Virus record (IMG/VR): IMGVR_UViG_3300035670_000014
Location: 1-64,000 of that record
From: a virus
Reading direction: 5' to 3' (one strand)
Length of the DNA stretch: 64,000 nt
Below the pieces are notes generated by a model. It was not told the DNA's origin. It was given only the letters and a program-made list of their open reading frames with translations, and did no database searches. Both the position numbers and the translations under genes were made by a program. Position 1 is the first letter of the stretch, and every line of letters starts with the position of its first letter. Of this stretch, positions 8,273 through 27,904 are shown piece by piece.

Positions 8273-8606
8273 TAAAATGATTCAAACTAAAGATATAGTA
8301 ATTCAAACTAAAGCAGGTGATATGGTGTGTCCTGCGATTAACTATGACACTCCTTTCCCTGTTGATGAATTTAAAGCTGCACCTCTTATGACTGAGGAAG
8401 AGGTTATAGCTCAAGCTCTACAGGCAGGATGCCCTCCTGCTGGTTGGGAAATAATTCAAAGAAGAAAGTTAAGAGAAAAACAAATACAAATGTTAAAAGA
8501 CCAACAAGAAAAAGATAAAGTGTTAAAGGATAATAAAGGTAATAAAAAGAAACTAAACCTAAAGCAACTAAAAGCATTAGAGTTAGCAGAGAGAAAGCAG
8601 GTGTAA
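8262..8606 (+). CDS. Hypothetical protein with basic C-terminus
   Basis: 114-aa ORF filling the gap before the tape-measure locus. Confidence 0.5.
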   Translation: MEPNKMIQTKDIVIQTKAGDMVCPAINYDTPFPVDEFKAAPLMTEEEVIAQALQAGCPPAGWEIIQRRKLREKQIQMLKDQQEKDKVLKDNKGNKKKLNLKQLKALELAERKQV

Positions 8607-8607
8607 G

Positions 8608-11600
8608 ATGATTCAGGACCCTGTAACTGGGCAGACCGTACCTTTTAGCTTTGGCTTTGATGCTCCCGCAGAAAAAGTCTCATTCGGTCGAGTTCAGTCA
8701 CAGTTTGTGCCTGATGAAGGAGAATCGGGGGAAATAAATCCTACAGCCGAAAGGGCAATGTCCTTGGGTGTAGGGGCAGCTGTTTTATACTATGGCGCTC
8801 CTAGAGCTTTGGATGAATTTGTAAAGTTTAGTAAGATTAAGTCGCTTGAAGACTATGACTTGCCTGGAGAGCAAGCCATAGATAAAATTAGAAGAACTTC
8901 TGGAAGCTCAGCAAATAAAGCTCTAGATGCAATGCTTGGGCCTGAGCCTCAGGGATTTGATCCAGCCGACTTACAAGATCCAGCGAAAAGACTTAGTGCA
9001 ATAAATGCCTTCAAGGCTCAGAAGAAATACTCAGCTGAGGTTATGTTTAACCTTAAAAAAGCAGAGCTAGAAGAAAGACTAAGACTAGAGCCATTCAAGA
9101 GTACTGCAGAGGATTCTATTGGTAGGAAAGCCTTTGAGTTCGCAAGAAGAGTTGAAACATTTAATGCTGCTGGAGACTTTCTATCTCCTATATTTAGAAT
9201 ATTTGCAAAGGCTCTTGGTGCTGGTAATATTCTTTCTTATTACTCTAAGACGGGTGAGCAAGCTACAACTGCCTTTAACGTATCAGCAAGTCAAGTAGGC
9301 TCAGATGTAAGAGGTGCCTGGAGGACATTTCTTGAGTCTGATATATTTAATGCTTCACTCCCTGGTGAAGCGACAGATACAATTGAAGCTCGAAAAGCAA
9401 GGCTATCTAAAGCTTTTGAGCAAGCTGACTATCTTGTTGTAAAGGGAGGCAACCTCTATAGAGGTAGGGCTGTCGTAAGAGATAGAAAGAAAGTAATTGA
9501 AGCAATAAATGAAGATCCACTACTTAAAGGAGTGAACTTAATTAGTGGAACAGGAAAAGAAAGAGTAGGAATATTAACTGAAATTGATTCTTCTTTTGGT
9601 GATAGATTAGGCCCTACAAGAAGAATAAGAGGAGAGTTAATTGGAGCAAGTGAAGGATTTCTATTTCTTCCAAAGAATATACAAGGTCCATTTACTGATC
9701 CAAGATTAAATCAATCACTATTCCTTGCAAAGGGATGGATGTCCTCTTCTCTTCAGAGAACAGCAGGACTAATGGAAGAGCTTGCCACTGAAGGCAAAAA
9801 CTTTCTTAAAGATACAGTTGGATATTTAACTACAAATAAAAATACAGGCAAAGTATCGGCTATAGCAAGAGCGTTTGGGATACTTCCAGACTTCCACCTA
9901 AAGACCTCTGCTGGTATGCTGGGTACATACATGGGCTTCGCAATGAAGACCTATGCTGGCCTTGCCATAGCTAACCAGAGTCAGTTCTGGCAACAGAATG
10001 GAGGGTTCCTTGGCTGGATGGCTGGTGGTGCAATAAACACTGGCATTGGCGCCTATATTGGCTCTAAACTCGCCACAGCACTAAAAGTAGACTCAGGTAG
10101 GGGTAGGCTTATAGGCGCGGCTATAGGGGCAACCTCGTTCATTCCAGGCAGTCCTTTTAATGATGGTGTTATTGGTGGTGGAGCAAGGATATTTGGAGGA
10201 ATAAATCGCCTAAGGTCAACCATAGGCGAAGCTACCTTGATGAATAGCTGGAGAAGAACTCTAGAAAAAATAGCTCCTGGTTCTACTGATTTTACCAGTG
10301 CTATGTTTTTTGGCTTAGCTGGATCACTTGCACTTACAGCAGGTTACAGAAAGTTTTCAGGAAAAACTTTTATATCCAAGTCAGATAGAATTGCTTATCT
10401 GAAAGCTTTTGATTTCGACAAGATTGAAGACCTTGTTGATCCCAGGCTTGGAGAAACTCTAGATCAACCTGGTGGTAACCTTAAAGTTGCTCAAGATTTA
10501 AGAAGAACTCTTCCATTCCAGCAAATGGATGCTGGAAAAAAAGAAAAGATATTTCAAGAAATAAAAACATATGTAGAGGATGCAAGGCAGGATCCTGCAA
10601 GGTGGGTAAAGTTACAGAATGACTTTGCCATGGTTGAAGACACCTATTCTGCTAAATCAATCTCGCTAGCAGAAATGCTAGAAGAACAATCATATGAAAA
10701 AGCTAGAGCTAAATTACAGAATCCAAAACTGGGACTAGCAAAGCGTATAGAAACAATGGCACTTGAATTACCTCTCGCAAGAGGTGTAATTTATGGTGCT
10801 ATTGCTATGACTGCTATTTATGCAGGACTTACTGGTCAGCTAGGTACAAAAGAAACTCCTACAGAAATTGGGCAATATAATCGCGGAGAAAAGTTAGAAG
10901 TAGTAAGAAGAGCCCAAAACTGGGAAGGTGGCTCTGAAGCCTATGAAGGTGCTGAGCCGCTATATCACAGGCCTACATTTATTGCAAGATTAATTAGTGG
11001 AACAATGTCTTCTGGTTCCTCTAATAGGGGTATGGTTGAAGAGTTCTTACTTAAGAACTTCACATATGAACTAGAAAGAGAAAGTTACTATACTAAGCCT
11101 GCGCCAATTACTTCTGCTGCCTTTGATACATTGCCAATGGTTTACCTGGCAATAAAGCCGCTAGCAGATTTAATTAAAAGACCAAAGTTGATGCATGAAG
11201 AAATGTGGCATCAAGATGGTCAGTATTTGGAAATATCAGAAGGACTAGATCCATTGCCTAATATGGGAATGGGTGGCGAAGGTATGGCTGCCCCAGTCAG
11301 CCCATACTCATATAGTAGGGTAATCTCTAAGGTAGTTAATCAAGCTCAAGCTTTTGCAGGTATTAGAGGCTTCTATACAAAAGAAGCAACAAAGTTTATT
11401 GGAGGATTTACTGGCATTGCAGACCAGAGAAAAGAACTAGAGTCATACAGTGAAAACGTAGATATGACATCCAGGTTCTATGATCTTCATACAGGTGGTG
11501 GCTTTATGGGCGTGCCGTTTGTATCTGAAATCATAAGAAGATTCATGGTCAAAAATAATGCTGGTACTTATAATCCAATTCCTAATGAGCTTCCCAGTTG

Positions 11601-13449
11601 GCTTCCAGAATCTATGAGGTATGGAAATCCCTATACTTCACTAGCACATGGAGGAGCTGAATATAGAATGCCAGGTGAAGGCTATGCCTCTCTGAATCCT
11701 GAAATGAAAGGAGTAGACCCAGAAAACTACTCTACTGCTCATAGGTTCAAGATACTAGGTAATATAGCTCCTTGGTCAAATGAATACAGAGACACAAGAG
11801 ATCAAATAGAATCTGAAATATCAAGAGGTATGATCTCAAAAGAAGGTTATAGAGATTACTATAATACTCTTCAAGATATTAAAGATAGGCAAAAGAAGCT
11901 TGCTTTTAATCCTTACCTTTATGATCCTAGTAATTATGACAGCATCATAGGTAGGGTAAAAAACTTAGATGCTGACAATCTTGCATTTGAACTAGAAGGT
12001 GTAACTGGAAAGTTTACACTGGCAGGTGTAACTAATAATGCTGGTGACTTGGTTGGTCAGCTTAACCTTGAAATACATGAAGCTGCAAAAGTCAGAAAGC
12101 AGAATGCTTCCGAGTTTCAGAAGCTAATTGAAAAAGGTGAGTTTGTAAAAGTAACAATGCCTAAGTCAATTGGCCATGCGGTTAATGAAAGGGGCCATAT
12201 AATGGCGGCTGTAAGTAAACCTCTTACTCAGCTTAGTTATAATGCAGCCTTAGCGAGAAATGCCAATGTAGCAACTGAAGATTCAGTTATTGGTCAATAT
12301 GCAATGGGAGGTTTTGCAGGGAAGACTGCAGGTAGGGCGTATCAGGCATTTACTCATACTGCTACATCTTTAACTGCACCAGTAGAATTCATATCTAAGT
12401 TCGGCTTTTCTCCAGGCATGAAGCTTATGCCTGAAAGAACAGCAAGAGAAGAGTATGAACAGTTTAACCTGTACGGTACAAGAGTTAGACTTTGGCAAAA
12501 TCCTTTGACTCACTGGTTTGGTTCTTCAGCTAAGTCGTTCGCACATAATGTAGTTGGTTTAGACTTTGTAAGCCCTGGTGTACAGAAGCAAAGAGATGTA
12601 GAAGAATACTTTGATAAAGCTAAATATGTAAAGTACAAGAGTGCAGAAAGAGCAGCCAATGCAGCAGGCAATGATGAAATGGCTATTGCTTATAAGTCAA
12701 TGGCGAGAGACACAATGATAGGGGGCTCTGGGTTTGTAGGAGATACAAGATTTAGAAACTTGATGAAAGGAAATGAAGGAGCCTATGCTTTAGGCATGGC
12801 GGCAGAAATAAACCCTTATGAGCAAAATAAAATCCTGTCTGTCCTACCAGAACATAAAAGAAGAATAATGGCTGGCAAGTATGGCCAGCAAGACCAGGCA
12901 GCAATTAATAGAATGCTACAGGCTTCACCAATAAGTGAAGCTGGTATGGACTATTTAGATAAGCTAAATAATCTACAGAGATCAGATGGCTACCTAATGG
13001 AAACCTCTTCAGTCGAAGCATACAATATGCAGAAGCAGGAAAATGAAGAGTACTCTGATTTTAGAAGAAGAAAAGAACTAGAAGAATACTATAGAAAGAA
13101 TAATAGGCCCAAAGCAGACTGGGCAGGTTTTAATCCGAATGTAGACCTTGAAGATGTCAAGTTAAGGTACTTACAGAACGAAGGTTTGGATTATCATAAC
13201 TTCTCGATCTTTGAATCTAGAAACGAATATCTCCATAGGAAGCCCTACATAACAAGCCATGACATTACTCAAGTAGGTATAGGCTATACGAACCTTAACA
13301 TGGCAATTAACAGTTTAAATCAAGTAAGACAAATGATGGCAGCTCCCGTAAGCGGAACTACATTTGTTGGTAACTCTGAATCAAGAAGTAGTAACTTTAT
13401 ACAGTTAACACTAGAGCAAGACCGATTCTATAGAATGGAAGGAATGTAA
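8608..13449 (+). CDS. Tape-measure-like / ejection protein with membrane segments and degenerate SNase-like domain
   Basis: 1613 aa after the chaperones; several Gly/Ala-rich hydrophobic stretches; SNase-like pattern at about 11944-12275. Confidence 0.6.
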   Translation: MIQDPVTGQTVPFSFGFDAPAEKVSFGRVQSQFVPDEGESGEINPTAERAMSLGVGAAVLYYGAPRALDEFVKFSKIKSLEDYDLPGEQAIDKIRRTSGSSANKALDAMLGPEPQGFDPADLQDPAKRLSAINAFKAQKKYSAEVMFNLKKAELEERLRLEPFKSTAEDSIGRKAFEFARRVETFNAAGDFLSPIFRIFAKALGAGNILSYYSKTGEQATTAFNVSASQVGSDVRGAWRTFLESDIFNASLPGEATDTIEARKARLSKAFEQADYLVVKGGNLYRGRAVVRDRKKVIEAINEDPLLKGVNLISGTGKERVGILTEIDSSFGDRLGPTRRIRGELIGASEGFLFLPKNIQGPFTDPRLNQSLFLAKGWMSSSLQRTAGLMEELATEGKNFLKDTVGYLTTNKNTGKVSAIARAFGILPDFHLKTSAGMLGTYMGFAMKTYAGLAIANQSQFWQQNGGFLGWMAGGAINTGIGAYIGSKLATALKVDSGRGRLIGAAIGATSFIPGSPFNDGVIGGGARIFGGINRLRSTIGEATLMNSWRRTLEKIAPGSTDFTSAMFFGLAGSLALTAGYRKFSGKTFISKSDRIAYLKAFDFDKIEDLVDPRLGETLDQPGGNLKVAQDLRRTLPFQQMDAGKKEKIFQEIKTYVEDARQDPARWVKLQNDFAMVEDTYSAKSISLAEMLEEQSYEKARAKLQNPKLGLAKRIETMALELPLARGVIYGAIAMTAIYAGLTGQLGTKETPTEIGQYNRGEKLEVVRRAQNWEGGSEAYEGAEPLYHRPTFIARLISGTMSSGSSNRGMVEEFLLKNFTYELERESYYTKPAPITSAAFDTLPMVYLAIKPLADLIKRPKLMHEEMWHQDGQYLEISEGLDPLPNMGMGGEGMAAPVSPYSYSRVISKVVNQAQAFAGIRGFYTKEATKFIGGFTGIADQRKELESYSENVDMTSRFYDLHTGGGFMGVPFVSEIIRRFMVKNNAGTYNPIPNELPSWLPESMRYGNPYTSLAHGGAEYRMPGEGYASLNPEMKGVDPENYSTAHRFKILGNIAPWSNEYRDTRDQIESEISRGMISKEGYRDYYNTLQDIKDRQKKLAFNPYLYDPSNYDSIIGRVKNLDADNLAFELEGVTGKFTLAGVTNNAGDLVGQLNLEIHEAAKVRKQNASEFQKLIEKGEFVKVTMPKSIGHAVNERGHIMAAVSKPLTQLSYNAALARNANVATEDSVIGQYAMGGFAGKTAGRAYQAFTHTATSLTAPVEFISKFGFSPGMKLMPERTAREEYEQFNLYGTRVRLWQNPLTHWFGSSAKSFAHNVVGLDFVSPGVQKQRDVEEYFDKAKYVKYKSAERAANAAGNDEMAIAYKSMARDTMIGGSGFVGDTRFRNLMKGNEGAYALGMAAEINPYEQNKILSVLPEHKRRIMAGKYGQQDQAAINRMLQASPISEAGMDYLDKLNNLQRSDGYLMETSSVEAYNMQKQENEEYSDFRRRKELEEYYRKNNRPKADWAGFNPNVDLEDVKLRYLQNEGLDYHNFSIFESRNEYLHRKPYITSHDITQVGIGYTNLNMAINSLNQVRQMMAAPVSGTTFVGNSESRSSNFIQLTLEQDRFYRMEGM

Positions 13450-16400
13450 TGGAACGTAGATTTGAATTCCAGGATTTGGCTGCACTTGGTGCCATTGGTG
13501 TAGGTCTTGCCGTAGGTATAAGAAGTGCCAAGAGCGCAGGCGTTACCACAGATGATATAGTTAGAGCTTACTCTAATGTAACACCAATTAGAGATGCGAC
13601 TCCAATTCCAGTTCTGCAAAAAACTCAAATGAGCCAGCAGAATGTTCTAAGTAGAATTGCAAATGCTGTCGAAATAAGAGAAAAGTTTAATGCTCAAAAA
13701 GTAGACAGAATTATAAGTGGAATGGCAACTGCACCTCTTAGTGCAAATGAGTTAAATGCAGCAAAATTTGGATTACTAGAGTACGCTACGAGTCCTCAAG
13801 TTGATCCTCAACTTAGAAGTCAGCTACTAGGAGGTCAAGATATTGGGACCTTTGCAACTGATATATTCAACATGAATGAGCCTCAAGTTAGAGCAGAGGT
13901 AACTAGGGCATCAAGTATTAGTGCATTAAAAGAGCAGAAAAGAAATCTTAAAAATATCATTGGAAACAAGTCAAGGTCTGCTTCAAGATTTAAAAATAAT
14001 CTTGCCACTGTAGCTAGGGTATTTGATGTTAAAGAAGCTAGAGCAAAAGTAAAAAATCCAACAAATCCATCAAAAAGAGTATTTAATTCAATGACATCAA
14101 ACATGTCATATAGTGCAGTATTGAATAAAAATGTAAGAAGGTATCCATTAAAAGATAAAATAAATGTTTTAGGAACTGACTTTAGTAGAACCTTTGATTT
14201 TAAAGGTGGAGCTGAAGGCCCATGGAAGCAAGTAGAAAATGCACTAGAAGGGTTAAATTTAAAAAATAGCATAAACAACAAAGTAAGAGATGAAGTAGTA
14301 GAAAAGTTTAGAAAAACTCAAGACTATCTAACTCAATTAGAAGGTAAAGGAATCATCCCTAATAGAAGTAATCTAAGTATTACGGTTATGGGAATGAAGG
14401 GGATGGATAGTCCTGCTATTTATTTGAATGTTCCATTTGGCGATTCAATGGACCAAGCAAGAGGTAGAGTTGGTTTTCAGATTCCTTTAAATAGACCTAA
14501 TTATATAAGCCAAAGAGGAACCTCAACCCCTGTTTATTTTTCTACAGCAGAACCTAGAAATCCCGTTGCATTAAATGCAATGACAATGAGAGCGGGCTCT
14601 ATTAATGAGATAGGAGAAATACAAGGTGGTAATAGATTATTAAATACTATTGATGCTGTATTCTTTGGAGGGGCAGATAATGTTGATGTAAAAAATATAC
14701 CTTTCTATGAATCAATAATAACCTCTAAAAAATCACTACTTCCGATAGATAATAGTGATCCAATTTTAAATGAAGCAGCAGCGAGACAGAAAGGAGTCGG
14801 AGTAGAAGATGTTACAGGTAGACTGAAAGAAGGTAATATATTTACCGTCAATCCCTTAGACTCACTATTTGGAACAGGAGATGATAAAGCTAAATATGGC
14901 CAGTCAGTTATTGGATCAATTGATGATGCAGCTAAATCTCAGTTAATGGTTCAAAGAGGAAGAATGATTGGAATAAGTGGATTATCTGAACTTCTAGATA
15001 CTTCACAATTTACATCTAAAGATATATTTGATGATATACACCGTCAACTGAATAATACTATTTCTAGCTATGGGGGTAGATACTCAATCTTGAGAGTTAA
15101 TGCTTCAAGTGTTTCCCCTGGTCAGGTAGGTATAGAAAGAGGAGGGATAAGTGCTGTTTCATTTAACTTAACCAATCCTGAGGCGGTAGGTCTTACTCAG
15201 GATCAGTTAAAAGAAGTTGTTGAAGGTAGAGGCGGAAGATTAGGTAAGCTGGCTGATTTAAATCAAGCTGAAAGAGAAGACCTTGCTAAAAGTCTTGGAG
15301 TTGGAACAGAGGAGCTAGAAGATATCGCCAGAGCAGAAGGAGGAGGAGTAGGCAGAGCAAGCAAACTTGTTAGGTTAAAAATAGCTAAAATGGGAGAGGG
15401 TGCAGCAACTATACTTGATGAGTATACACACTTTGGTCTTTTAGAGGGAACAGCTGATCCTACTGGATTTAATCAAGGAAGAAGACCATCCCAGCCTCTA
15501 GTTGATGTATTTGAACCAACTCAATCATCACTAAATGAGATGAGTGAAAGTCGCTACAGTTTAACTGATGAAACAGGGAATAAGTATACTTTATTTTCTC
15601 CCTTGGAAGAGATAGGAGTATCAAGGTCAGAAATGCCCTCAGATGTAAGAAAGACAAGAATAAATAGGAGATATTTATTCATGCATCCAGAAGCAGAGAG
15701 AGACATCACTGGTGGAGTGGTTTCAAGAGCTAAATCAAGCTTTCAAGAAGGTATAAGTGTTGCTGTCACCGATAAAGTTAATCCTGAGTTTTATGGGCAA
15801 TCTGTAAAATCAAGAGTTTTTCTAGGAGAAAGTAAAACTATATTAAGCGAAAGAATGGAGAAATTAACATCAGCACTACTCTCACTGTCAGAAGATGACA
15901 GGAAAGATAGTACGATTAGAAAAGAAACAATCAGAAAAGCTCTATTTGAAGGAGATCTTGGAAATCTAAAAGCTCCTAGACCTATCTTTGAAAGGGGAGA
16001 GTTTCTAGGTCTTAAGATGGATGCTAGAAGTGGTTTAGATTTATCTGGAGTAGATTTTGGTGGAATGCCTGAGTATGCACTAGAAGATGCATATATAGAT
16101 GGTAATACATTAGACTTAGAATTTAAGCCAATTATAAGATCACAACAAGCATCTAAAGTTATGCTCTCAAGTAAGACAACTCAGGTAGCTATGGGGTCTG
16201 ATGAGTTAGCAGATGTATTAAGACTAGGACAAGAAGATGAAGATATATCAAGATTACTTAGCCGCAGGCGTATAGATGCAGTTGCTGATGCTACTGAAAT
16301 TGCAAGAAAAGGAAACTTAAATGCAATTAGATCACAGCAGCTTAGCGGGCTTATGGAAGTAATGACAGATTTATTTGAAGCAAGTCAGTCCGCAACATTA

Positions 16401-19400
16401 ACACCAAAAGGGATTGAAGCATCAGGTAGATTTGGTAATTTTATTAGAGGCGTAAAGGGGTCCATAGATGCACTAAATAATGCAATGACAGGAACCTCAA
16501 AAGGTCAAAATGTTTATAACTATAAGTTTTCAAGATTTAATGAAAATGTTAATAAAGCAAAAGAAATATTAGAAACAAGAAAGGCTAATTTTGGTCAAGA
16601 TAAAACCCTGCGTCCAGTTGCTGAAGCTTTAGATGAGATGCTTAATAGTCCAAGATCAACATCGGCCTTGTTAGATATAATAGGAATCTTTGGAGCAGCA
16701 ACAGGCAGAGGTAAGAACGTACTTGATGAAGATGTATTTGGAATATTTGGACTAGAAAAAGTTAAGGCAAAAGGTGGTTCTCTAATAGCAGGTCTAGAAT
16801 CAGTCCAATCAAAAGGAAAGTACCATGCAGGAATACTTGGTGTAATGGCAGATAAGGAAGCTAGAGATTTAACATTAGATGTTTTAGGTGAGCTGACAAA
16901 AGATGAAAAAGGAAATAGCCTTTTTCAAGCAGGGTTTTTAGATGAAACATTAGAAAGAATTGGTATCGGATTACAAAATACAGATGTAAATGAGTTCTTT
17001 ATTAGAGGACAAGCTGCTACTACTTTCAGAACGACAGCAGGTATATTTGAAGCTAATCAGGTTTCAATAGAAAGAAGGGCAATTCATTCATTACTGAATG
17101 TAAATCAATTTGTATCAGAAGATGGCAGGATCAACTTTAGAGATCTCTTTGTTGAAGACTTAGTTACTCAGATACAAGGACCTTCAAGAGAAGAAGCAAT
17201 TCTTGCAGGATCTTTACTTGGAAACAATGGGCTGCTTGATTTAGCAAGAGGCAATGAGCCAATCGAAGTTCTCACTAGCACTACTGAACTAGGAGATCAG
17301 GGAAGAAATGTGACATTACCATTCCTGCAGGGACATGTTAAGAGTCCAATTTTATACATGCCTTCTACAGAAGAAAGAGAAATACTACAAAGGAATATCT
17401 TAATTGGAGATAAGACACTTGATAAATCTTACTCTGGAAAAATAGATGAAATAAAAGCAATACTAGGAGGTATGTCACCTGAAGACATGAGTTCATTTGA
17501 TCCTAAGAGTATACATGGGCAGCAGTTAATAAATGCATTTAATGAAGCAAAAGTCATTGGGTTCTCTACTGCAACTGATATTAATGAGAGATTCTTTTCC
17601 GGTGCCATAATTGGAAGTATCTATACACTAGAACAATCAGGACATAAACACTTTGACGACAATCTCAAAGTAGCAGATAACATAATGCTTAAATCCTCAA
17701 CCAAAGGTGGGGGATTAGTGACTGCAGTAAACAAAAGAGAAGCTCAAAGATTACTAGAAGGAGTCAAGAGAGTTGCCAGTAAAGAAGTAGCAGCTCAAAT
17801 ACAAAAAGAACTATTTGAAGACATGACTCCTGTTTTGCAAATAAGCACAAGATTTCCAACTATTACTGGTACACCTAGAATAGCAGGATTAGTTCAATAT
17901 GATCCTGACTTAGATTTTGAAGTTAATGAAAGAGGTAACTTTTATAGAAGTGAAGTAGACGGAAAAGTAAACTATATAGAAGTTGATAATTTTGATAACT
18001 CAATAGAAGTCAATAAAGATAAAGAAGGGAAATTAATAAAGTACAGAGAAGTAGATACAGAAGTAAGAAGGGGCGGCGTAGCAATAGCCGAAGTAACAGA
18101 AGGTGGCAGTAAAAAAGAAGTAATTATAGACTCCTATCTTCTGTCTGGTACTACATCAGACCGTGACGGTGATCAAGCTCTAAGGAATCTATATATAGGT
18201 GGGAATAGACAAGAAATACAAGATTTCCTTATGTCAGAAGATGGGAGAAGGCAAATGTTTGCTTACATTTACAAGCAAACAGAAATGCAAAAACAGTATG
18301 AAGATATGGTAAAGTCTAGTCCTAGGATGCAAAGCTTTGAAGCTGCAGCCAAAGGAACGGGTGAAGTGTTAGATGATTCAGTAAGGGCACTATCTCAACA
18401 TGCAGGACAGGCAGAAATTGGCAAAGTTTCATCTGCTATTACTCAGTTAAAGTTACTATCTGCTTATAGTAAAGAAGCGGCAGTTCAAAGCCTGGGAAGC
18501 GATACAGTAAAAATAAATGCAATAGAAGAATCCTTTGAAAGGTTTATGGGTTTCCTTCAGGGACTGGAGCAGGTTCCTATTTCATTCAAGCACTCTGCTG
18601 CTGGTGAAACTCCCGCTGCAGCATTAACAAATCAGATAATGAACATATTTAGCAATACCGATCAGGTAGAAGCAGAAAAGGCAATGCAAGAATTCCTAAC
18701 TGGATGGATGGGTGGAGATAAAGATCAAGTTGGAAAGATAACATCAGAGTGGATGGATAACTTTATGCGAACGGCTGTAAGTTACTCAGTTGCAAGTGAT
18801 GAAATAAGAAATGCAATAAGTCTATCTACAAAGCATAGTGAAGATATTGCAAAGATGAGTCCTGAGGATTTCCAGCAAAGATACAAAATGGCAATGAATG
18901 TAAGAGGAATGAGTGTAGTAACAGCGACCCATGCTCATGCTGAGCTTGCAGCTGCTGTTCAAGCTGCCTCATTAAAGGGAAATGAGCAGATAGCTGCCTT
19001 AAATAATAGCCTTATAGAAAGAGCAGCTGAAGCTAAAATGAACAGTAAAATAAGCGGAAGCGTAGCGGAGCAAGCAAGAAGTGCAGTGTTAAATGAAAAA
19101 GGTAAAGCTTTTTCAAAGATTGCTAAGCCAGTTGGAGCTGGCCTTGCAGCTGCAGGCTTAATATATGCAATGTTTGACCAAGGCCATTCAGCAGATAACC
19201 TTGAAGAGCCAGAAGGTGGAAAAGGCCTTAAGCCTCCAGCTGGGATTAGAATGAACAATCCACAAAGAGATACTAATCTTAATGTTCCCTATGAAGATAG
19301 AGAGATGAGCTATGCACCGAATACAATAGATAGGAGAACAGTTGGTAGTTCAAATACAGGAAGAGTCAATTCCCGAGCCCAAATATCTCAGAATGTTAAT

Positions 19401-19508: not shown

Positions 19509-22500
19509 TGGCAAATTATATGTTTGATGTGATTGAGCACATCAGGGAAAACCTACCCAGACTAGAAGATATATATTCTTCTCAAGCAACGGAAGATCAA
19601 GAAGCATACTCTGATGAAGAGATAATGAATCATGCCTTTTGGCTAAATGATCTCTTGTTTATATGTCCTCCTCAATCAATTAATACACAAACAGATCAGC
19701 TTATTGCGAAATATCAATCTTTAAGATCATCAGCAAGTTCAAAAGTTCCCTTTGGAAAGGGAACTAAATATTTCATGGTAGATTTAGTAATACCTGCTAA
19801 GTCTGCAATTATGAATGTAGACTACAGGCTACCTGATAATAATGCAGTTGCTACTGTATCTCATGATAGTGATTATGTCAATACAGGTAAACGGGGAGGA
19901 ATACTTGATTTAATCATTCAGTTTAAAGTTACTCCATTTGCAAGAGTAGAGAATGCCTTTATAAGATCTACCCTTGGCATACCGAAAGATAAGAATATAG
20001 CAATGTGCCTGCATCAGCTAACCCTCTACACAATAAAAGGTAGAAAGGGTGCAGTTGGATGTAAGTTACTAATGTCTGTATTTAACTACAGTCCTTATAG
20101 TCCAAATTTTGTTTATAAAGAAGATTGGGTTACTAAGAGTCAATATGGAAGATTTAATATTGAAAGTGTAAATCGAATAGATTTCGGAGATCGTAGTGTA
20201 GCAAGAAGAAGAGTTCCTTACAAGGTTTATATACAGGGGCTATCGGATGCAGTGGCAACTCTAAGATCTGAAGAAGTGGAAGCACAGCAGGCAACTTCTC
20301 CTCTAGTGCAGAGAGTTAATCCGGTAACACTTGGTAGTTTTTATGAAAGTGGAAATCCTTCTAGTTTAAGTAATGCCGAAAGATCCAGGGCATTTGAAGA
20401 GCAGTATAACATGCTCTTTACTGAGAATGAAGATGAAATGAGTAATGTTGATTCTTATTTCATGGAAAGCCCAAGAGGAGTTGCGAACCCTGCATCAAGT
20501 GCTGTATTTAAAGCTTATATTGACTGGATTCACTCACAGTGGACATCTATAAATGATATAGATGGTGAGTTTAATGGCTCTGCAATTAGTCAATATGGAA
20601 GCGAAGAGCAGGATTTAGGAGATCAAGTTATTCTTGAGTGGAAAGAATTCAAGACAGAGCCAATGCCACCTGAAGTAGAGCAGGAGGTTAGAATTTGGTA
20701 CCGCCAAAGAATGGCTGACTATCAAGCTGCTAGATCAAGCAGAGAAGAGTACACTCCGGCTACACCACAGAATAGTAATCAAAGTACAAATACAAATCAG
20801 ACTTCAACTACCAGTAATCAAAATAATAATACAAATACAAGTGAAGGGCTGTCAGTTATAACAAGTCCCAGTTATCAAGACTGGGCAAATCAAAGTGGTA
20901 ATCCACTAGAGCCATATAGAGTAATATATGATCCAGTTACACCAAGACCAGGTGGAAGATTTGCTGTGTATCGTAGGCCTAGAAATTACAATCACAAAGG
21001 CATAGATACGTATTCTCAGTCTGTTGGGGAAATAGGCTATGAGATTAGAGCAATTTATAATGGAAACTTACACTATCAGCTAAGTAGAAAAGAAGGAATA
21101 CTAACAAATGAAATAGCTAGAAAAATAATACAGTATAAAACTACCCCAGGAAATGAAACAAAGAGTAGCGGCGAACTAGACGGACTTAGCTTCTCATTAA
21201 AGGGCTTTGAAGAATACAGAGACGATGGACCTGCTGGAGTCTTTTTAAAAAGAGGGGGAGTTTTTTATCCAGTTGAAGGAATTATAGAAACAACTTCAGG
21301 GCGTCAAAATGTATACTATTTCACATACTTGAAAGAAGGAAGAGAAACTAGAGGTGGTGTAATCGCAAGCATTAGGCTAGATGATGGAACTTATGCAGGT
21401 ACAGATCTAGATGGTATAGCATGTAACTACATGCATATTGGAGTAACAGAAGAAGTAAAAAATCTAATTGATGAAACAACTGACTCTCGTGGGGGCAGCA
21501 AAAGATCAGTAGTAACTAGAATTCAGGCAGGAGATTTTGTTGCCTATGGTGGCTGTACTGGCATTTATGAAAGCTATCCTCACTTGCACTTTGAAATGGC
21601 AAAGGACGATTGGTATCCTGATCTTGACATTATTGAATATTTAGATTCAACCCCATTTGTTTTTCCTGGACAAAGATCAGATGTAACTGGAGTAGAAGCA
21701 GAACAAGATGAAGATATAAGGAATAATCCAATTTATTATTTAAATAATTTAGATTTAAATACGTGGACTAATGCTGGTTCTCCTGGGCTTATAGAATCAA
21801 GTAATTCAGGGACACTACCAGAAGAAGTAGAAACCTTAAATCAGCCTACAGGCATTGACAGGCAAGAAAGAGAAAGACAGCAAGCAAGAGATTACAATGC
21901 AGAAGCTTTAGGTTCTCTTGAACAGTATAGGGCTTTTGTAGAAAGGCAAGAAAGTCAAGGATGGAAATTATATACTGAGAATACACTAGCTTATAACATT
22001 TTTTACAGAGTAAAAAGAATTAGTATTCCTGCATCAGATCAAGAAAACTACCCTCTTGGTGTACCGATAGTCTGTGACTTCATCTCAGGTGGGGCAAGTA
22101 ATATTATTGCAAGCATCCCTATGATGGGACAGACTTATCCGACTGCACAGTTTCTTGGTAGAAGGGATGATGAGTTCATGCTTTCATTTAGAGCAATTGG
22201 CCTCAATAATGTTAAGCTTCTTTCTAGAATGAGAGATGAGCTTAAGAGTCAAGCTCATTCGTATAAGTGGATTCCTGATGCATGGATGCTGAAAGTAGAA
22301 AACAAATTTATCAATGCTTTCGGGCATCGGTACTTTGTTGTAAATAACATGAGTGAAGTAACTTCACCAGGTCAACCTAATACCTATAACATTGAAATAG
22401 GAATAACATCTCACCCAGCCAATACCGACCAGGGTCAGATAACCTCAATGCAGGCAGTTAATAAAGAAGAAATAAAACTAACATTCTGGGAAGAGCTACT

Positions 22501-25500
22501 GCATGGTTATAAAGATGGAGAAGATGAAGGTAGAATTTTAATAGAGAAGCAAACAACTTGGGCTCTTGTTTCTATGCCTGGCATAGTTGCAGGTACAACA
22601 GTTAAACCTTTTATAAGTGAAAACCAAGATAGCTTTGTAAGCGAAGATCGGACTGCTCCATATACAGGAATAGTTCCCTGTTTTGTTGCAAATCCTAGGC
22701 TGCTAAGTATTAGTCAAAATAACATACAAGCTACGTCTACAGCTACTAGTGTGGCTGACTCCACTCAGGATCCAAATCAAGAATTTTTCAACTGGCTTAA
22801 TGTCAGGGTTGCATCTACTCTAAATTTAGTAAGGCTCCTAGAAGAAAGCGTTACTCTTTATGATCCAAGTACTGGAGAAAGAGTAGATGTATCACTTAGT
22901 CGTAGGTATAAGAATCTATATGATAGAATTTTTTACTTGTGGAGAGCTAAGGCAAAAAAGATTCCATTAGGAAGTGGAAATATAGTAGCAGAAACAACCT
23001 TAATGGCAGAAATGTCAAATAGGAAAATTGTCAATTCTTTTGCACAGGAAAATGTAATCAGGGAAGCATACTCTGGATATGGGCTACAGAATTGGTTTAT
23101 AGAGGAGAATGGTTTAACCAGATGGAATAGCAATGAGAAGATTTGGACTTTTGGTGACAATGTTGCAAGGCTAGAAGACTTTGTTGGTTTAGACGCAAGT
23201 CTTAATGTAACCTCATATGAAGGAGGGGTTAATTTAGCATTAACAGAAGCATATAATTATTCACTTAGAGAGCATACAGATTGGAATCTTAATGGCGAGT
23301 ATAGGCCTAATACTGCAGTTCCAATGATGGAGGCATACCTTGATGTCAACCCAGTTGTCAAAGCATTATTGTTAAGTAACTATCTATCTAAACCTGAGAT
23401 TTATTTATTTGATGAGCTTGATAGAAGTAACTCAAACTATAGAGGAAGCATTATTGATTATTTTTGCTCCCTCTTTAAAAGAGAATTAAGAGCTGGTTTT
23501 GACTATCCGGCTTTTTCTTTTAGCCGTCCCTTAATATATGGAAATGTAATTACATTCAGAACCATAAAGCCAAGTCTTCTTTACGACTATGAATATGTAG
23601 CAAAACCTTTCCCAATGGGAAGAGATAAATCTCCAGTAGAAATAACAGAGCCTATTTTTGTTCCAAGTTCAGCAACTACAGCTCCAGTTAGAACAGTACC
23701 ATTTGAACCATCATTCTCATCAGAAGTATTACTAAAAGTAGGGAGAAGAGATCTAGCAGAAAGAATTCTAAATTCGCCTCTTGTTGCTGGAAGTAATATA
23801 AACTTTAATAATTTGAGTATATATATCTGGGATCAGCTATCTATTCCCTACCTCAATAATGCTTTCAGTATGGAAGACATTATAAAGTATAGTCAATATA
23901 CCTGGCCGGATGGCAAAGCTATATTCCCTAGAACTCAAGAATTATTAAAGAGAGAAAGAATAGGAGTTGAGGGAGTAGCTTATCCAGACATGATGCTTCC
24001 CTTGCATCCATTCTGGACAAGTCAAAATAGCTTACTTCCAGTAAGTAGTATTTATACTGAGCCAGATTTTTATCTAATTAATTATGGTGTTGATACAAAT
24101 ACAGAATCAACACACTTAGAGCCAATATCAGATCCATCTAATCCAAAGACATCTGAGAATGCTACAAATTTATTTATTCAGACACAAGCTGAACTTGCAT
24201 CTCAATCTCTTGATATGATGGAGGGAAAAGCAAGAGATGAAAGGGGAGCTTTAATAGGCGGGTTGACACACACAACAGTAGAAGGTATAGAAGTTCAGAA
24301 ATCTAAACCTTTTATTGAAATGGTAAATCCTATTAATTCTAATGCGCTTGGATTGTTTAAGGGAGATCCAGTATATCTAAGATCTGATCACTCAATTGGC
24401 TCTTATTATTCTTCTGGGAATGTAGACCCAAATACAGGAAGGCGCACAAAAGATTATAGTGAGGCAATGAGGCAAGAGGCTCTTGGGAGTGGAGCAGTAA
24501 ATATTAGAAAAACAAGATCAGCCGATGCATCTAGTGATACATTGATAGGTCAGAAAATTACACAATCAACAATAGACTCAAGATTTGAAGCAGAAGGTTT
24601 GAGTTACTTTCAGGGAGTTTCAAGAAGCCAAGCCTTTGAATACACAGCTAGTCCTCAAGGAAGTGATGTTCAACTTAATGCAGGTATGAATACCCTGTTG
24701 AATGAAGGTGGCGGTAATTCTAATCTTGTATTATGGAGAAGTGTAGTTCCAATGTTTGCTCCAAATACTGCTTTCCCGGAGACTCCGCTATCTTTTGGAG
24801 GAAGAAGTTTTGTTGGAATGGGCTTTGATGGCTACTCAAGGTACTCTCCTGCAAGTATGATTGACAGAATTAATAATGAGGCTGATGCTGTTTATGAGTT
24901 CAATACAGAAAGTTCCACTTCTGATCCTAGTGCTTTTGTGAATGGAAACTGGGGATACAGTGATATTCATCAGTTTACAACAAGTAGACTTTCTACTTAT
25001 GAAAAGATAAGAGATGGCCTCAAGGGATTAAATATAAAGAAGTGGGCGTTTAGAAGAGCATTTCCTACTTTTAAAGTTTACATTATTGAAGAAGATGAGA
25101 TTGAAAGAGAGTGGATTCAGTATGACGACTTCTATCAGTACAACCAGATTCAAGAAATACAAATCTCTGAATCAAGAAAAAGACCTGCTCCTGTATGCAT
25201 AATTAATTTCATTAATGTAGGCGGTGCGCTGGATGGAAATAACCAATGGCACTATTGGGCTAGAAATAATCCTAATCAAGAATATGATGCTCAAAATCCA
25301 AATGTAGCGAGATCGTATTCTAGAAGAGAACAACGCATGACCTCAGACACAAGTAATCAGTTACTTGCAGGTACAGCAGAAGAGCAGAATATAACTAGAT
25401 TTGTTTTAAATCCAGGAGTAAAGATAAAAGTAAAGCTAGGTTATTCAAATAACCCAACAAAAATGGAAGATGTATTCCTTGGCTCAATAGCAGAAATAGT

Positions 25501-27904
25501 ACCTGATGCAGATGCTGGGTCTGTAGTCATAATAGCTCAAGGATATGGAGCAGAGTTAGTAGAAAAGCCAAAAGGAGCAAGTAAAGAAGAGATAGCAAAT
25601 ACCTACTTTACAACTTTTGATGTATTGGCATCACTGATGTTTTCTAGTGAAGTTAAACACTTTGGCAAGAGAAAAATTGACTCAGTGTCAATGATAGGTA
25701 CTGATCAATCACTAGCTCAAAATGAACTTATATATAGAAATACAGTATCTCAAACTACTTCATCATTTGCAGGTAGGTTATTTGGAGGATTCTGGAGAGC
25801 AGGTATAGCTGCAGCTACACTTGGTACAAGTGAAGCAATCATAGCTGCCGTTGGTCTTGCTAATGACTTAGCCTATGAAATAGACAGGCAACTAAGACAG
25901 GTTAGAGTTGGACCAGAAGAAGGACCTCAAGATGATAACATTTATGCTCCTAATTACTCAAGAGCAGAATTAAATTATCACTGGTGGAATCCTGAAAATC
26001 TAGTAAATGGTAGATGGAGGCAAAGTGAGCAACCAACGAGTGTTGGACTAGAAACAGTATCTTCAGTTCTAGATCCAGAAGATGGAGGAGCCGAAGCTCA
26101 GTCTAGTCGCCCTAGTCCCCCTGGTAATATACAAGAAAGAGAATTTGATATTCCTGCTGGAGCCGGGACTAGAATAGCAGATCCAAATTTTCAATACTAT
26201 GAACAGATTAGCCCTGCAGAAATAGAATATAATATTTTCTATTCTTCTATCTGGGATGTATTCCAAGAGATGACATTAAGGCATCCAGGATTTGTAAAAC
26301 ATCCTAGGATTTACAAGAATAGTAATAGAATGACAATGTTTTTTGGATTACCTGATCAAAAATATTGGGCATCTGAACCTAGTATTGGAGAAATAACACA
26401 AGCTAATGCTACATTCTCAAGAATGAGAGATGGGATAGTAATGGTTCAAGTATCAGGTCCTACTGTAAATAGAAGCTCACAAGGTATTACTGAGGAAAAT
26501 CCAGGACAACTTACGACGGTAACTAATCTATTTCAGAATAGAACAACCAGATCTACTGGAGGCGGAGATGCTCCAGGAGAGTTAGCTGTTGACCTAGACT
26601 TGCTAACTAGCTGGATGTCTATGGTTCAGAGAAGGCTGAAGCCGTTTAGAAACTGGTATTCTGTTGATTCAGTAACTGATATAGTTGAGAACCGTATAGA
26701 AGCAAATAAACTTGGATTCTATACTTCTGTTTCGCTTCAATACTTGTCAGGTGCAAGTGCAAGTAAATTAAAAGGAGCACTAAGGAGATTAGAAAGAGGA
26801 GGTGGAGCTGACTCAGAACTTATAACTCCCTCTAACTTTATTGCCTGGTCTGACAGAGAAGTTGAACATACACAAGCTCATAGAGATATGAGCCCAGATG
26901 AAATAAGGCAGAAGTTTCATCAGTTTGCAAACTGCAGGTCAAGATCAATGGCAAGAAGATACTCTAGAGCTCTCCTTGCTTCTTATGCAAAAGAAATGTA
27001 TAAGGGAACTATTTCCATGATTGGAAATAGCAAAGTAAAACCTTATGATGTTTTGCTAATTAATGACACTCACCATAACGTTCAAGGGCCCATAGAAGTT
27101 GAAGAAGTAATACATAACTTTAATCCTATGACAGGATTTATTACAGAGGTAATACCTGATACGTTCATTATCCAAGAGGATAGGACTGCATTTGTAGTAT
27201 GGAATAGTCTTAGAGCACATGCAGGCCTTAAGACATCCAGACATATGGAAGGAATACTTTTCCAGCGAGACAATACACTTCCTGATAATAATGCTTTCAA
27301 TTTAGTTGCTGATAGGTATAGAAGAATAATAGAATCAGAAAGAGAAATTAATAGGAGATTTGACGAGCTAGTATCAGATTTAAGAAATGGTCTTTATTTA
27401 AGTGAAAGAACAGGAGGGTTGGTATTGGGTAGTATAGGTGCTGGTGTAGTTGGGGCGTCTATAACTGCGCCGGGAGTTGGAGCTGGAGCTTTAACTGCCG
27501 TTGCAGCCATTGGAACAATAGCACTAGGAGTAGGCATTTACTTCGGCTTAATATCTAATTTTGTAACTTCTATATATGTAAATTATGTACATAATAATAG
27601 AGCTTATTTTATGATTCCTTTAATGAGAAATAATACAGCTTGGACAGTAGGTTATAACATCACAGGCACTAATAGCTTTGCTATGGGTATACTTGATCTA
27701 ATAAGAAGATGGTGGCAAGATGGAGGTGAGGGTGTTACTCTTTCAAATGTTGATGCAGCAATGACTGAGCAGAGAATAGCACTTACCCTTTCATCTGAAT
27801 TAAATACTTTCTCTAGACTTAGTATCAGGTGGGATCAGTTTACTAGGTCTTTCAGGACCGGGCTGACACTTGGTGGTTCTGTAAATGTTCGCTCAGGGTT
27901 ATAA
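19508..27904 (+). CDS. Giant baseplate hub (gp27/VgrG-like) protein with M23 peptidase domain
   Basis: HKGID...YMH...PHLHFE M23 motifs; PGVKIKVKLGYS...VFLGSI and GTISMIGNSKVKPYD...VEEVIHNF hub motifs. Confidence 0.75.
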   Translation: MANYMFDVIEHIRENLPRLEDIYSSQATEDQEAYSDEEIMNHAFWLNDLLFICPPQSINTQTDQLIAKYQSLRSSASSKVPFGKGTKYFMVDLVIPAKSAIMNVDYRLPDNNAVATVSHDSDYVNTGKRGGILDLIIQFKVTPFARVENAFIRSTLGIPKDKNIAMCLHQLTLYTIKGRKGAVGCKLLMSVFNYSPYSPNFVYKEDWVTKSQYGRFNIESVNRIDFGDRSVARRRVPYKVYIQGLSDAVATLRSEEVEAQQATSPLVQRVNPVTLGSFYESGNPSSLSNAERSRAFEEQYNMLFTENEDEMSNVDSYFMESPRGVANPASSAVFKAYIDWIHSQWTSINDIDGEFNGSAISQYGSEEQDLGDQVILEWKEFKTEPMPPEVEQEVRIWYRQRMADYQAARSSREEYTPATPQNSNQSTNTNQTSTTSNQNNNTNTSEGLSVITSPSYQDWANQSGNPLEPYRVIYDPVTPRPGGRFAVYRRPRNYNHKGIDTYSQSVGEIGYEIRAIYNGNLHYQLSRKEGILTNEIARKIIQYKTTPGNETKSSGELDGLSFSLKGFEEYRDDGPAGVFLKRGGVFYPVEGIIETTSGRQNVYYFTYLKEGRETRGGVIASIRLDDGTYAGTDLDGIACNYMHIGVTEEVKNLIDETTDSRGGSKRSVVTRIQAGDFVAYGGCTGIYESYPHLHFEMAKDDWYPDLDIIEYLDSTPFVFPGQRSDVTGVEAEQDEDIRNNPIYYLNNLDLNTWTNAGSPGLIESSNSGTLPEEVETLNQPTGIDRQERERQQARDYNAEALGSLEQYRAFVERQESQGWKLYTENTLAYNIFYRVKRISIPASDQENYPLGVPIVCDFISGGASNIIASIPMMGQTYPTAQFLGRRDDEFMLSFRAIGLNNVKLLSRMRDELKSQAHSYKWIPDAWMLKVENKFINAFGHRYFVVNNMSEVTSPGQPNTYNIEIGITSHPANTDQGQITSMQAVNKEEIKLTFWEELLHGYKDGEDEGRILIEKQTTWALVSMPGIVAGTTVKPFISENQDSFVSEDRTAPYTGIVPCFVANPRLLSISQNNIQATSTATSVADSTQDPNQEFFNWLNVRVASTLNLVRLLEESVTLYDPSTGERVDVSLSRRYKNLYDRIFYLWRAKAKKIPLGSGNIVAETTLMAEMSNRKIVNSFAQENVIREAYSGYGLQNWFIEENGLTRWNSNEKIWTFGDNVARLEDFVGLDASLNVTSYEGGVNLALTEAYNYSLREHTDWNLNGEYRPNTAVPMMEAYLDVNPVVKALLLSNYLSKPEIYLFDELDRSNSNYRGSIIDYFCSLFKRELRAGFDYPAFSFSRPLIYGNVITFRTIKPSLLYDYEYVAKPFPMGRDKSPVEITEPIFVPSSATTAPVRTVPFEPSFSSEVLLKVGRRDLAERILNSPLVAGSNINFNNLSIYIWDQLSIPYLNNAFSMEDIIKYSQYTWPDGKAIFPRTQELLKRERIGVEGVAYPDMMLPLHPFWTSQNSLLPVSSIYTEPDFYLINYGVDTNTESTHLEPISDPSNPKTSENATNLFIQTQAELASQSLDMMEGKARDERGALIGGLTHTTVEGIEVQKSKPFIEMVNPINSNALGLFKGDPVYLRSDHSIGSYYSSGNVDPNTGRRTKDYSEAMRQEALGSGAVNIRKTRSADASSDTLIGQKITQSTIDSRFEAEGLSYFQGVSRSQAFEYTASPQGSDVQLNAGMNTLLNEGGGNSNLVLWRSVVPMFAPNTAFPETPLSFGGRSFVGMGFDGYSRYSPASMIDRINNEADAVYEFNTESSTSDPSAFVNGNWGYSDIHQFTTSRLSTYEKIRDGLKGLNIKKWAFRRAFPTFKVYIIEEDEIEREWIQYDDFYQYNQIQEIQISESRKRPAPVCIINFINVGGALDGNNQWHYWARNNPNQEYDAQNPNVARSYSRREQRMTSDTSNQLLAGTAEEQNITRFVLNPGVKIKVKLGYSNNPTKMEDVFLGSIAEIVPDADAGSVVIIAQGYGAELVEKPKGASKEEIANTYFTTFDVLASLMFSSEVKHFGKRKIDSVSMIGTDQSLAQNELIYRNTVSQTTSSFAGRLFGGFWRAGIAAATLGTSEAIIAAVGLANDLAYEIDRQLRQVRVGPEEGPQDDNIYAPNYSRAELNYHWWNPENLVNGRWRQSEQPTSVGLETVSSVLDPEDGGAEAQSSRPSPPGNIQEREFDIPAGAGTRIADPNFQYYEQISPAEIEYNIFYSSIWDVFQEMTLRHPGFVKHPRIYKNSNRMTMFFGLPDQKYWASEPSIGEITQANATFSRMRDGIVMVQVSGPTVNRSSQGITEENPGQLTTVTNLFQNRTTRSTGGGDAPGELAVDLDLLTSWMSMVQRRLKPFRNWYSVDSVTDIVENRIEANKLGFYTSVSLQYLSGASASKLKGALRRLERGGGADSELITPSNFIAWSDREVEHTQAHRDMSPDEIRQKFHQFANCRSRSMARRYSRALLASYAKEMYKGTISMIGNSKVKPYDVLLINDTHHNVQGPIEVEEVIHNFNPMTGFITEVIPDTFIIQEDRTAFVVWNSLRAHAGLKTSRHMEGILFQRDNTLPDNNAFNLVADRYRRIIESEREINRRFDELVSDLRNGLYLSERTGGLVLGSIGAGVVGASITAPGVGAGALTAVAAIGTIALGVGIYFGLISNFVTSIYVNYVHNNRAYFMIPLMRNNTAWTVGYNITGTNSFAMGILDLIRRWWQDGGEGVTLSNVDAAMTEQRIALTLSSELNTFSRLSIRWDQFTRSFRTGLTLGGSVNVRSGL

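Follow-up and report, generated by a model that had tools for sequence, protein, structure and literature searches.

Three very large genes that follow one another on the plus strand of the virus record IMGVR_UViG_3300035670_000014 (IMG/VR) appear, on balance, to form a conserved tail-lumen and hub unit of the lineage of Bacillus phage 0305phi8-36, with a probable injected polymerase in the position of the tape measure protein (called the slot below). They lie in the window, which is the first 64 kb of this complete record of 170,948 bp; statements about the genome refer to the whole record, which has a G+C content of 40% and carries 127-bp direct terminal repeats at its ends. Gene 1 (positions 8608-13449) encodes P0001 of 1613 amino acids (aa), gene 2 (13449-19508) encodes P0002 of 2019 aa, and gene 3 (19508-27904) encodes P0003 of 2798 aa, and all three open reading frames (ORFs) are open. 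A preliminary description of this stretch had proposed that the three genes, joined by TAATG stop/start overlaps at 13449 and 19508, are translationally coupled, that each product contains Gly/Ala-rich hydrophobic helices, and that together they supply membrane-channel segments with a nucleic-acid-binding fold, an RNA polymerase, and a hub with a wall peptidase; it further suggested that the function of the tape measure may be divided between two chains that are ejected. The ORFs and both junctions were verified at these coordinates. The gene order, the homologies, the conservation of a motif in P0002, and the lack of any other recognisable polymerase or tape measure gene were observed directly, and, as far as can be told from sequence comparison, the tail probably serves the phage to bring a transcription enzyme of its own into the cell.

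When P0001 and P0003 were compared by tblastn with 50,697 phage records, both retrieved an identical set of eight records, which represent six phages (two of them with two records each): 0305phi8-36, WH1, Edson, KLEB27-3, ME3, and MTATph1. In all five relatives that were opened, a giant gene is present between the homologues of P0001 and P0003. The order tail sheath, tail tube, tube paralogue, gp142-like gene, gp143-like chaperonin gene, three giant genes, and baseplate J gene is the same in 0305phi8-36, ME3, WH1, and KLEB27-3, and this synteny survey matched the block gene for gene to gp145-gp146-gp147 of 0305phi8-36. Since the three-giant layout is kept across the relatives of 0305phi8-36, it is, judging from these alignments, an old and conserved feature of the lineage and not peculiar to this phage. 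In 0305phi8-36, the giants are gp145 (1930 aa), gp146 (2537 aa, annotated as 'hypothetical tape measure protein'), and the baseplate hub gp147 (1903 aa), and according to the notes in record EF583821 all three were detected in virions by mass spectrometry. In WH1, all three giants are annotated as virion structural proteins. From the homology to gp145 and gp147 and from the annotations of the relatives, we infer that the giants of this phage are virion proteins as well.

The middle gene of the block (13449-19508) is likely to contain the active site of a two-barrel polymerase. A word-based search among 5.8 billion clusters found a P0002 family of five proteins, including P0002 itself, and 14 proteins were found at an expectation value (E) of ≤ 0.001 among 1.84 billion representatives. 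Twelve full-length members, with 17-75% identity to P0002, are homologous from end to end, and their alignment contains only 46 invariant columns, including P1470, D1571, D1573, and D1575, while G1574 is present in at least 90% of the members. In an alignment of 15 sequences over residues 1395-1625, P1470 and the three aspartates were the only invariant columns. These residues are part of a segment (residues 1462-1580, positions 17832-18188) that alignments, hhalign, and a PDB profile search relate to the beta-prime-type barrel. It comprises an R-x-P loop (R1468-F-P1470, positions 17850-17858), in which the proline is invariant in 12 of 12 members and the arginine is present in 8 of 12, and a metal-binding-type motif (D1571-R-D-G-D1575, positions 18159-18173) with an invariant aspartate triad. 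P0002 and its close kin have a lineage-specific insert of ~55 residues between R-x-P and DxDGD; in members without the insert the spacing is ~45 residues. Distant members read SSDFDGD or DYDGD, preceded ~45 residues upstream by R-(N/S)-P-x-(I/L)-x-x-x-(S/G). The same R-x-P ... (S/T)G-x-D-F/T-D-G/I-D pattern was found in P23-45 gp96, phi14:2 gp66, and a 16-member alignment of proteins resembling YonO, a DNA-dependent transcription enzyme. R-x-P and the aspartate triad are among the eight superfamily-invariant residues of two-barrel polymerases, as listed in PMC2919709. The assignment of an RNA polymerase to the 2019-aa protein thus agrees with a polymerase-type catalytic signature that is invariant across a divergent family (12 of 12 full-length members, 15 of 15 in the longer alignment).

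The pairing of R-x-P with an aspartate triad recurs in other phages with a giant gene in this slot. WH1 gp095, a 'virion structural protein' of 2515 aa, is 27.5% identical to KLEB27-3 gp034, a 'structural protein' of 2434 aa, and both contain NRYPTIN, followed after ~38 residues by KAD(H/Y)DGD. ME3_36 (1603 aa, 'hypothetical protein', locus L013 13173-17984), for which no homologue but itself was found in the phage collection, contains R-E-P and, 45 residues further on, D-H-D-Q-D, which is found 76% of the way along the protein. Across the five proteins that were tabulated, the motif is located 73-79% along the protein and 386-519 residues from the C-terminus. When the P0002 family was aligned with WH1 plus KLEB27-3 using hhalign, the top match was the R-x-P/DxDGD segment (E 0.0057, probability 6.5%), with R-x-P placed on R-x-P and DxDGD on DxDGD, and weaker downstream matches were collinear. 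The barrel segment was also searched as a profile against 177,635 distinct PDB sequences. The profile made from the family only gave a single match at E ≤ 10, the active site of vaccinia rpo147 (E 0.61). With the WH1 and KLEB27-3 rows included, there were 60 matches. Largest subunits of RNA polymerases, aligned at their NADFDGD loop, made up 58 of them (lowest E: beta-prime 0.038, phiKZ gp55 0.048, and rpo147 0.063), and the other two were a glutamine-binding protein and a uridylate kinase. A protein-language-model search with residues 1440-1760 placed clusters of RNA-dependent RNA polymerase (RdRP, PF05183) at ranks 2 and 3 with a score of 0.77, which we take as a lead only. The complete genome contains no match to PF05183, PF00623, or PF00562, and hence no other recognisable RNA polymerase; PF00940 (T7-type polymerase) gave no match either, which carries no weight because its control matched in none of the genomes. 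A stand-alone PF05183 polymerase was found only in 0305phi8-36 (gp99), the slot gene of which has no DxDxD at all, and none was found in WH1, KLEB27-3, ME3, or the present genome; MTATph1 has neither the slot-gene motif nor a PF05183 polymerase. Taken beyond the active site, the reading of P0002 as an active, injected transcription enzyme seems to us only slightly better supported than its opposite.

The alternative that survives best, although we consider it unlikely, is that gene 2 encodes a purely structural tape measure or tail-lumen protein, in which DxDGD is a convergent metal-binding (e.g., calcium) or assembly site. A number of results weigh in its favor and against a polymerase. The whole of P0002 found nothing in Pfam, PHROGs, PDB (phmmer), or a full-length language-model search; tblastn against the phage records gave no match, and no loci related to P0002 were found in IMG/VR or GTDB genomes. 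Pfam matched none of the 12 family members and none of seven barrel fragments, the latter searched to E ≤ 10; this silence carries little weight since PF05183 also misses the genomes of the verified gp66 and gp96 enzymes. AlphaFold2 models were poor, with a mean predicted local distance difference test (pLDDT) score of 58 for residues 800-1720 (13 sequences), where helices and strands were mixed at low confidence, and of 64 for residues 1395-1625 (15 sequences), and the DxDGD loop scored below 50. Four fold searches with these models (Foldseek, VIA-align) returned chance-level or helical-hairpin matches only. Alignment of the P0002 family by hhalign with phi14:2 gp66, the N-terminus of P23-45 gp96, and the 16-member YonO-like alignment gave nothing significant, nor did alignment with ME3_36, MTATph1 CDS0027, and 0305phi8-36 gp146, and none of 13 proteins from related and reference phages matched the family profile in a hmmsearch. 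All PDB E values are marginal (0.038 or worse), and the 58 polymerases among 60 matches are partly owed to the near-canonical rows of WH1 and KLEB27-3. At the arginine of R-x-P, three family members have glutamine and one has leucine. The second, beta-type barrel was not found in P0002; of its candidate residues, D880 and K903 are shared by all 12 members and K909 by most of them, and the segment containing them has no profile match to WH1/KLEB27-3 or to the YonO-like family. A search for recurring promoter-like words gave no evidence of early promoters, the recurring words being coding repeats of a Gly-x protein array, paralogous gene starts, and hairpins. Finally, the middle genes of 0305phi8-36 and MTATph1 are without the motif and have no profile link to the P0002 family, and therefore the slot does not always hold a polymerase.

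Against a purely structural role stand the features that surround the aspartates. The R-x-P-x-I/L strand is located upstream at the right distance (~45 residues without the insert), distant members read DFDGD or DYDGD, and the pairing of R-x-P with DxDGD recurs in WH1, KLEB27-3, and probably ME3. In addition, the profile retrieves RNA polymerase active-site loops almost alone from the PDB sequences. We retain a polymerase active site in P0002 as the preferred reading. As a separate observation on MTATph1, a transposase gene and three small genes are located between its middle giant (1309 aa, no DxDxD) and the hub gene (locus L014 16539-19869), and its slot gene may be disrupted.

Gene 3 (19508-27904) encodes an oversized baseplate hub (phrog_20474, E 1.5e-49). 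The tblastn matches of P0003 include the hubs of 0305phi8-36, ME3 ('baseplate hub protein'), WH1, and KLEB27-3, and BLASTP aligned it with 0305phi8-36 gp147 at E 4e-12. The core that is homologous to gp147 comprises residues 1850-2573 (positions 25055-27226), as found with phrog_20474, tblastn, and BLASTP. Residues 490-700 (positions 20975-21607) resemble an M23 peptidase, with H496-x-G-x-D500 and H692-x-H694 invariant in the three hubs compared (35-72% identity) and ~190 residues inserted between the two motifs. Profile matches of this region are weak (Pfam PF01551 13.6 bits against a cut-off of 28.7; PDB 5kqb E 0.024-0.053). With intact M23 metal ligands in a baseplate hub homologue, P0003 is likely to carry a wall peptidase, as had been proposed.

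P0001, encoded by gene 1 (8608-13449), is a homologue of the virion protein gp145: BLASTP aligned the two in four collinear segments (E 2e-10 to 1e-5), and their genes occupy the same position. In the eight records retrieved by tblastn, its match always falls in the gene preceding the slot gene. Neither P0001 nor an alignment of its family gave a recognisable domain (P0001 in Pfam, PHROGs, or PDB, the family alignment in PDB or PHROGs), so that the nucleic-acid-binding fold claimed for the 1613-aa protein was not recovered in these databases; comparison with phi14:2 gp67 showed no similarity. In the metagenome locus L002, which contains a P0002 homologue of 73% identity, the C-terminal 1130 residues of P0001 are 97% identical, versus 72-73% for the homologues of P0002 and the hub. 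The nucleotide identity to L002 is 89% at window positions 10056-15224 (L002 1-5178), extending into the first ~590 codons of gene 2, and 74-81% in the rest of the block. Such a pattern suggests that this piece is under strong constraint or else was exchanged recently. In KLEB27-3 (locus L017 1827-8980), the gp145-like gene is seemingly in two pieces, gp031 (1340 aa) and gp033 (677 aa), both labelled 'structural protein', with the small gene gp032 between them and the P0001 match in gp033.

Gly/Ala-rich hydrophobic segments were found in each of the three giants when hydrophobicity was calculated according to Kyte-Doolittle with a 19-residue window. P0001 contains one at residues 723-741 (score 1.43). 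P0002 has an N-terminal segment at residues 6-27 (positions 13464-13529; 1.41-1.44, with residues 9-27 scoring 1.44), which reaches 1.3 in 4 of 12 family members, and a C-terminal segment at residues 1891-1909 (1.49), which reaches 1.3 in 9 of 12. The latter is followed by a tail, residues 1910-2019, that is the most conserved part of the family and accounted for most matches in the search among representatives (segment and tail together, positions 19119-19505). In P0003, a hydrophobic cluster near the C-terminus, at residues 2636-2682 (positions 27413-27553), scores up to 2.13 and is present in three of three hubs, and further segments are located at residues 2100-2118 and 850-870.

Between the gp143-like chaperonin gene (7110-7577) and the hub gene lie two small ORFs, gene 1, and gene 2, and thus both gene 1 and gene 2 occupy the position between the tail chaperone gene and the baseplate hub gene. 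P0001 and P0002 have no tape-measure match in Pfam or PHROGs; many true tape measures are without matches to tape-measure profiles. In the complete genome of 170,948 bp, no canonical tape-measure gene was found elsewhere: PF10145 is absent from it, and none of the remaining large ORFs carries a tape-measure annotation. For this reason, one or both of genes 1 and 2 must serve tail assembly. Two other very large ORFs are present in the genome, and neither is tape-measure-like. One of 2365 aa on the minus strand (genome 135126-142223, locus L007 11126-18223) has, at its C-terminal end, DUF4326 (E 3.8e-24) and a NADAR-like domain, and its first ~2000 residues have no family match. The other, of 1435 aa (genome 148417-152724, locus L008 4417-8724), has a staphylococcal-nuclease domain, is located just upstream of the terminase, portal, and capsid genes, and may be a packaged nuclease.

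The overlaps between the giants consist of the sequence TAATG, in which the stop codon TAA and the start codon ATG share base 13449 (positions 13447-13451, gene 1/gene 2) or base 19508 (positions 19506-19510, gene 2/gene 3), both on the plus strand. At both junctions, a purine-rich Shine-Dalgarno-like stretch is present 5-12 nt upstream of the ATG. The same overlap occurs at both giant-gene junctions of L002 and between genes 35 and 36 of Acinetobacter phage ME3. The distant locus L003 (hub 36% identical) covers only the junction of gene 2 with the hub gene, and TAATG is present there as well. However, among 27 adjacent pairs of plus-strand ORFs of at least 150 aa between positions 102 and 57392, 10 overlap, five of them by one shared base, which is TAATG in every case, and three more by ATGA. 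TAATG is thus a general junction style of the module, and for that reason it does not single out the giants. The overlaps are therefore compatible with translational coupling, as the preliminary description had it, but they are not special to the three giants and do not mark them as a special apparatus.

This junction style also favors the view that the giants are ordinary operon neighbours, in which case gene 1 would be the true tape measure gene, the gene 2 polymerase would be packaged elsewhere (e.g., in the head) or not packaged, and TAATG would reflect tight packing, as TAATG and ATGA join many unrelated pairs in the module. The tape measure gene usually follows directly after the chaperone genes, and it is gene 1 that is nearest to the chaperonin genes, preceded only by a 114-aa ORF. 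The 97% identity of the C-terminal part of P0001 to L002 would furthermore indicate a different constraint from that on its neighbours. Yet very distant phages keep gene 1, the middle giant, and the hub in this order, and the gene 2/hub TAATG is kept at 33-36% protein identity. Moreover, P0002 has a hydrophobic segment and a conserved C-terminal tail, like tape measure proteins that dock on the hub, and the homologues at the same position are labelled virion structural (WH1) or structural (KLEB27-3). With these points taken together, we regard mere neighbourhood as improbable. It is more doubtful by far that gene 2 encodes some other two-barrel polymerase (RdRP, primase-like, or PolD-type DNA polymerase) that does not serve early transcription: the superfamily includes RNA-dependent polymerases and archaeal PolD (PMC7824862 and PMC2919709), and the nearest named language-model clusters are RdRP, but all phage members tested (YonO, gp66, and gp96) were reported to be DNA-dependent transcription enzymes, for gp66 and gp96 in PMC10770324, and the phage encodes a DNA polymerase III alpha of its own, while no further RNA polymerase could be recognised in the genome.

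With P0002 as an injected polymerase, infection could proceed as follows. The proteins of genes 1 and 2 would be built into the lumen of the tail tube on the hub, aided by the product of the upstream chaperonin-like gene, and contraction of the sheath would expel them. The M23 peptidase of the hub would open the cell wall, the hydrophobic segments of the gene 1 and gene 2 proteins would enter the membrane, and the polymerase core would transcribe the first incoming DNA, as proposed for the tape-measure-fused polymerase of P23-45. The location in the virion, the ejection, the polymerase activity, and the chain that sets the tail length are all inferred in this scheme. A wider and more tentative idea, which we rate somewhat below even, is that throughout the lineage (the relatives of 0305phi8-36 including WH1, KLEB27-3, and probably ME3) the presumed tape measure is an injected single-chain two-barrel RNA polymerase, built into the tail lumen, flanked by a gp145-type partner and the hub, and delivered ahead of the DNA on sheath contraction, and that 0305phi8-36, which is without the motif, compensates with its stand-alone YonO-type polymerase. 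If this is true, the tail would be a recurring route for the delivery of transcription enzymes and not an oddity, 'tape measure' annotations of giant slot genes would hide enzymes, and the host-independent start of transcription in large phages without a recognisable polymerase gene would be explained. The idea can be tested in culture, since the signature is also present in two cultured Bacillus phages, WH1 and KLEB27-3.

The remainder of the tail module surrounds the block on the plus strand. The tail sheath gene (1445-3820; phrog_16991, E 6.3e-56) is followed by a tail tube gene (3832-4521) and a tube paralogue (4636-6009), both matching phrog_9206 and, by BLASTP, ME3_30 (E 1.2e-26 and 6.3e-11, respectively), which is annotated as a homologue of a 0305phi8-36 major structural protein. 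A gp142-like gene (6012-7082; BLASTP to 0305phi8-36 gp142, E 1.8e-7) precedes the gp143-like tail chaperonin gene at 7110-7577, which matched gp143 (BLASTP, E 2.1e-5) and ME3_33, a 'putative tail chaperonin' (E 5.1e-5). The two small ORFs downstream, of 231 aa (7577-8272) and 114 aa (8262-8606), have no family match in Pfam or PHROGs and correspond to gp144/ME3_34 by position only. No paralogy was detectable between the 155-aa and 231-aa upstream proteins, unlike gp143 and gp144 of 0305phi8-36, which are described as paralogous in PMC2147016. Directly after the hub gene is a gene for a 152-aa protein without a family match (27908-28366), and in L002 and L003 the hub gene is likewise followed by an ORF of similar size, of 152 aa and of 141 aa (with an open end), respectively. 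A Baseplate J-like wedge gene (29131-30312; PF04865, E 4.3e-12; phrog_6) forms the downstream boundary of the block.

Several observations were made outside the block. The DNA polymerase III alpha of the genome is split over two ORFs ~290 bases apart on the minus strand (genome 69428-73491, locus L004 5428-9491), one of 416 aa with the PHP domain and the beginning of the NTPase domain, and one of 840 aa with the remaining NTPase domain and the finger, HhH, and OB domains. At window positions 59105-60086, also on the minus strand, a RusA-like resolvase ORF (59105-59683) overlaps an HNH/homing endonuclease ORF (59541-60086) by ~140 bases in the program-made list of ORFs. A gene for a DUF6734 protein (window 55345-56178, E 2.1e-28) adjoins an endolysin-like gene at 56242-56910. 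Five small genes at genome positions 144546-146260 start with the word ATGAAAAAAGAATG, and they are a tandem paralogue set, since ~30 bases around the start are the same in four of the five. In another region of small genes (genome 128382-132533), there are four copies of the G+C-rich palindrome GGCCCCGAAGGGGCC, which looks like a terminator.

Virion polymerases have been described in other phages, and the gene 2 product can be compared with them. In phi14:2, which is a crAss-like phage, gp66 was reportedly identified as a virion RNA polymerase by Drobysheva et al. in 2021. This virion protein resembles P0002 in its size of ~2000 residues and has a DFDID site; its gene has other giant virion genes on both sides (NC_021806), and g067 and g066 share one base at their junction, as the giants do here. 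On the other hand, phi14:2 has another virion type, with no sheath gene in the stretch shown, its flanking giants are unrelated to P0001 and P0003, and between gp66 and P0002 no sequence or profile similarity was detected. The closest precedent is Thermus phage P23-45, where a virion two-barrel polymerase that transcribes pre-early genes makes up the N-terminal part of the tape measure (5002 residues) and is proposed to work at the tape-measure pore while the DNA enters (Chaban et al. 2024, PMC10770324). The coupling of DNA entry and transcription put forward in the preliminary description is this published model. P23-45 gp96 and P0002 both have a DxDGD core inside a tape-measure-slot protein, with the R-x-P ... 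G-x-DFDGD pattern common to both. The P23-45 tail is non-contractile, while the present phage has a sheath gene. The polymerase of gp96 lies at the N-terminal end (residues 327-1124 of 5002 form the active fragment) and a very long ruler follows, whereas the motif of P0002 is located at 78% of its 2019 residues, with only ~450 residues after it and no long ruler. No sequence or profile similarity between the two was detected, P23-45 has a second, non-virion polymerase while none was found in this genome, and P0002, unlike gp96, is flanked by a conserved partner giant and an oversized hub. Our literature searches found no paper on a polymerase in the tape-measure slot of a contractile-tailed phage; in the papers retrieved, an RNA polymerase carried in the virion by the tail's internal protein was described only for non-contractile Thermus phages.

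The arrangement of the block is closest to that of 0305phi8-36, with three giants in a row, a chaperonin-like gene upstream, and gp145 and gp147 homologous to P0001 and P0003. Hardies et al. (2007, PMC2147016) described gp147 as a 'hyperplastic' gp27-type hub, from which the link to T4 gp27 is taken, and assigned gp146 as the tape measure by its length. This gp146 is without similarity to P0002 and without DxDxD, and the giant-gene junctions of 0305phi8-36 are spaced and not overlapping. Its YonO-like polymerase is the stand-alone gp99, the only one that the available text of a jumbo-phage review (PMC7824862) mentions for 0305phi8-36. YonO and gp99 (PF05183; PMC2919709) resemble P0002 in being single chains with R-x-P and DxDGD ~44 residues apart, but they are products of stand-alone, non-structural genes with ~1200 residues, their hhalign alignment to P0002 is not significant, and PF05183 misses P0002. 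WH1 gp095 and KLEB27-3 gp034 are longer than P0002, their gene junctions do not overlap, their hosts are Firmicutes, and the overall similarity is marginal; like P0002, they occupy the slot between a gp145-like gene and the hub gene, and they carry the signature at 79% of their length.

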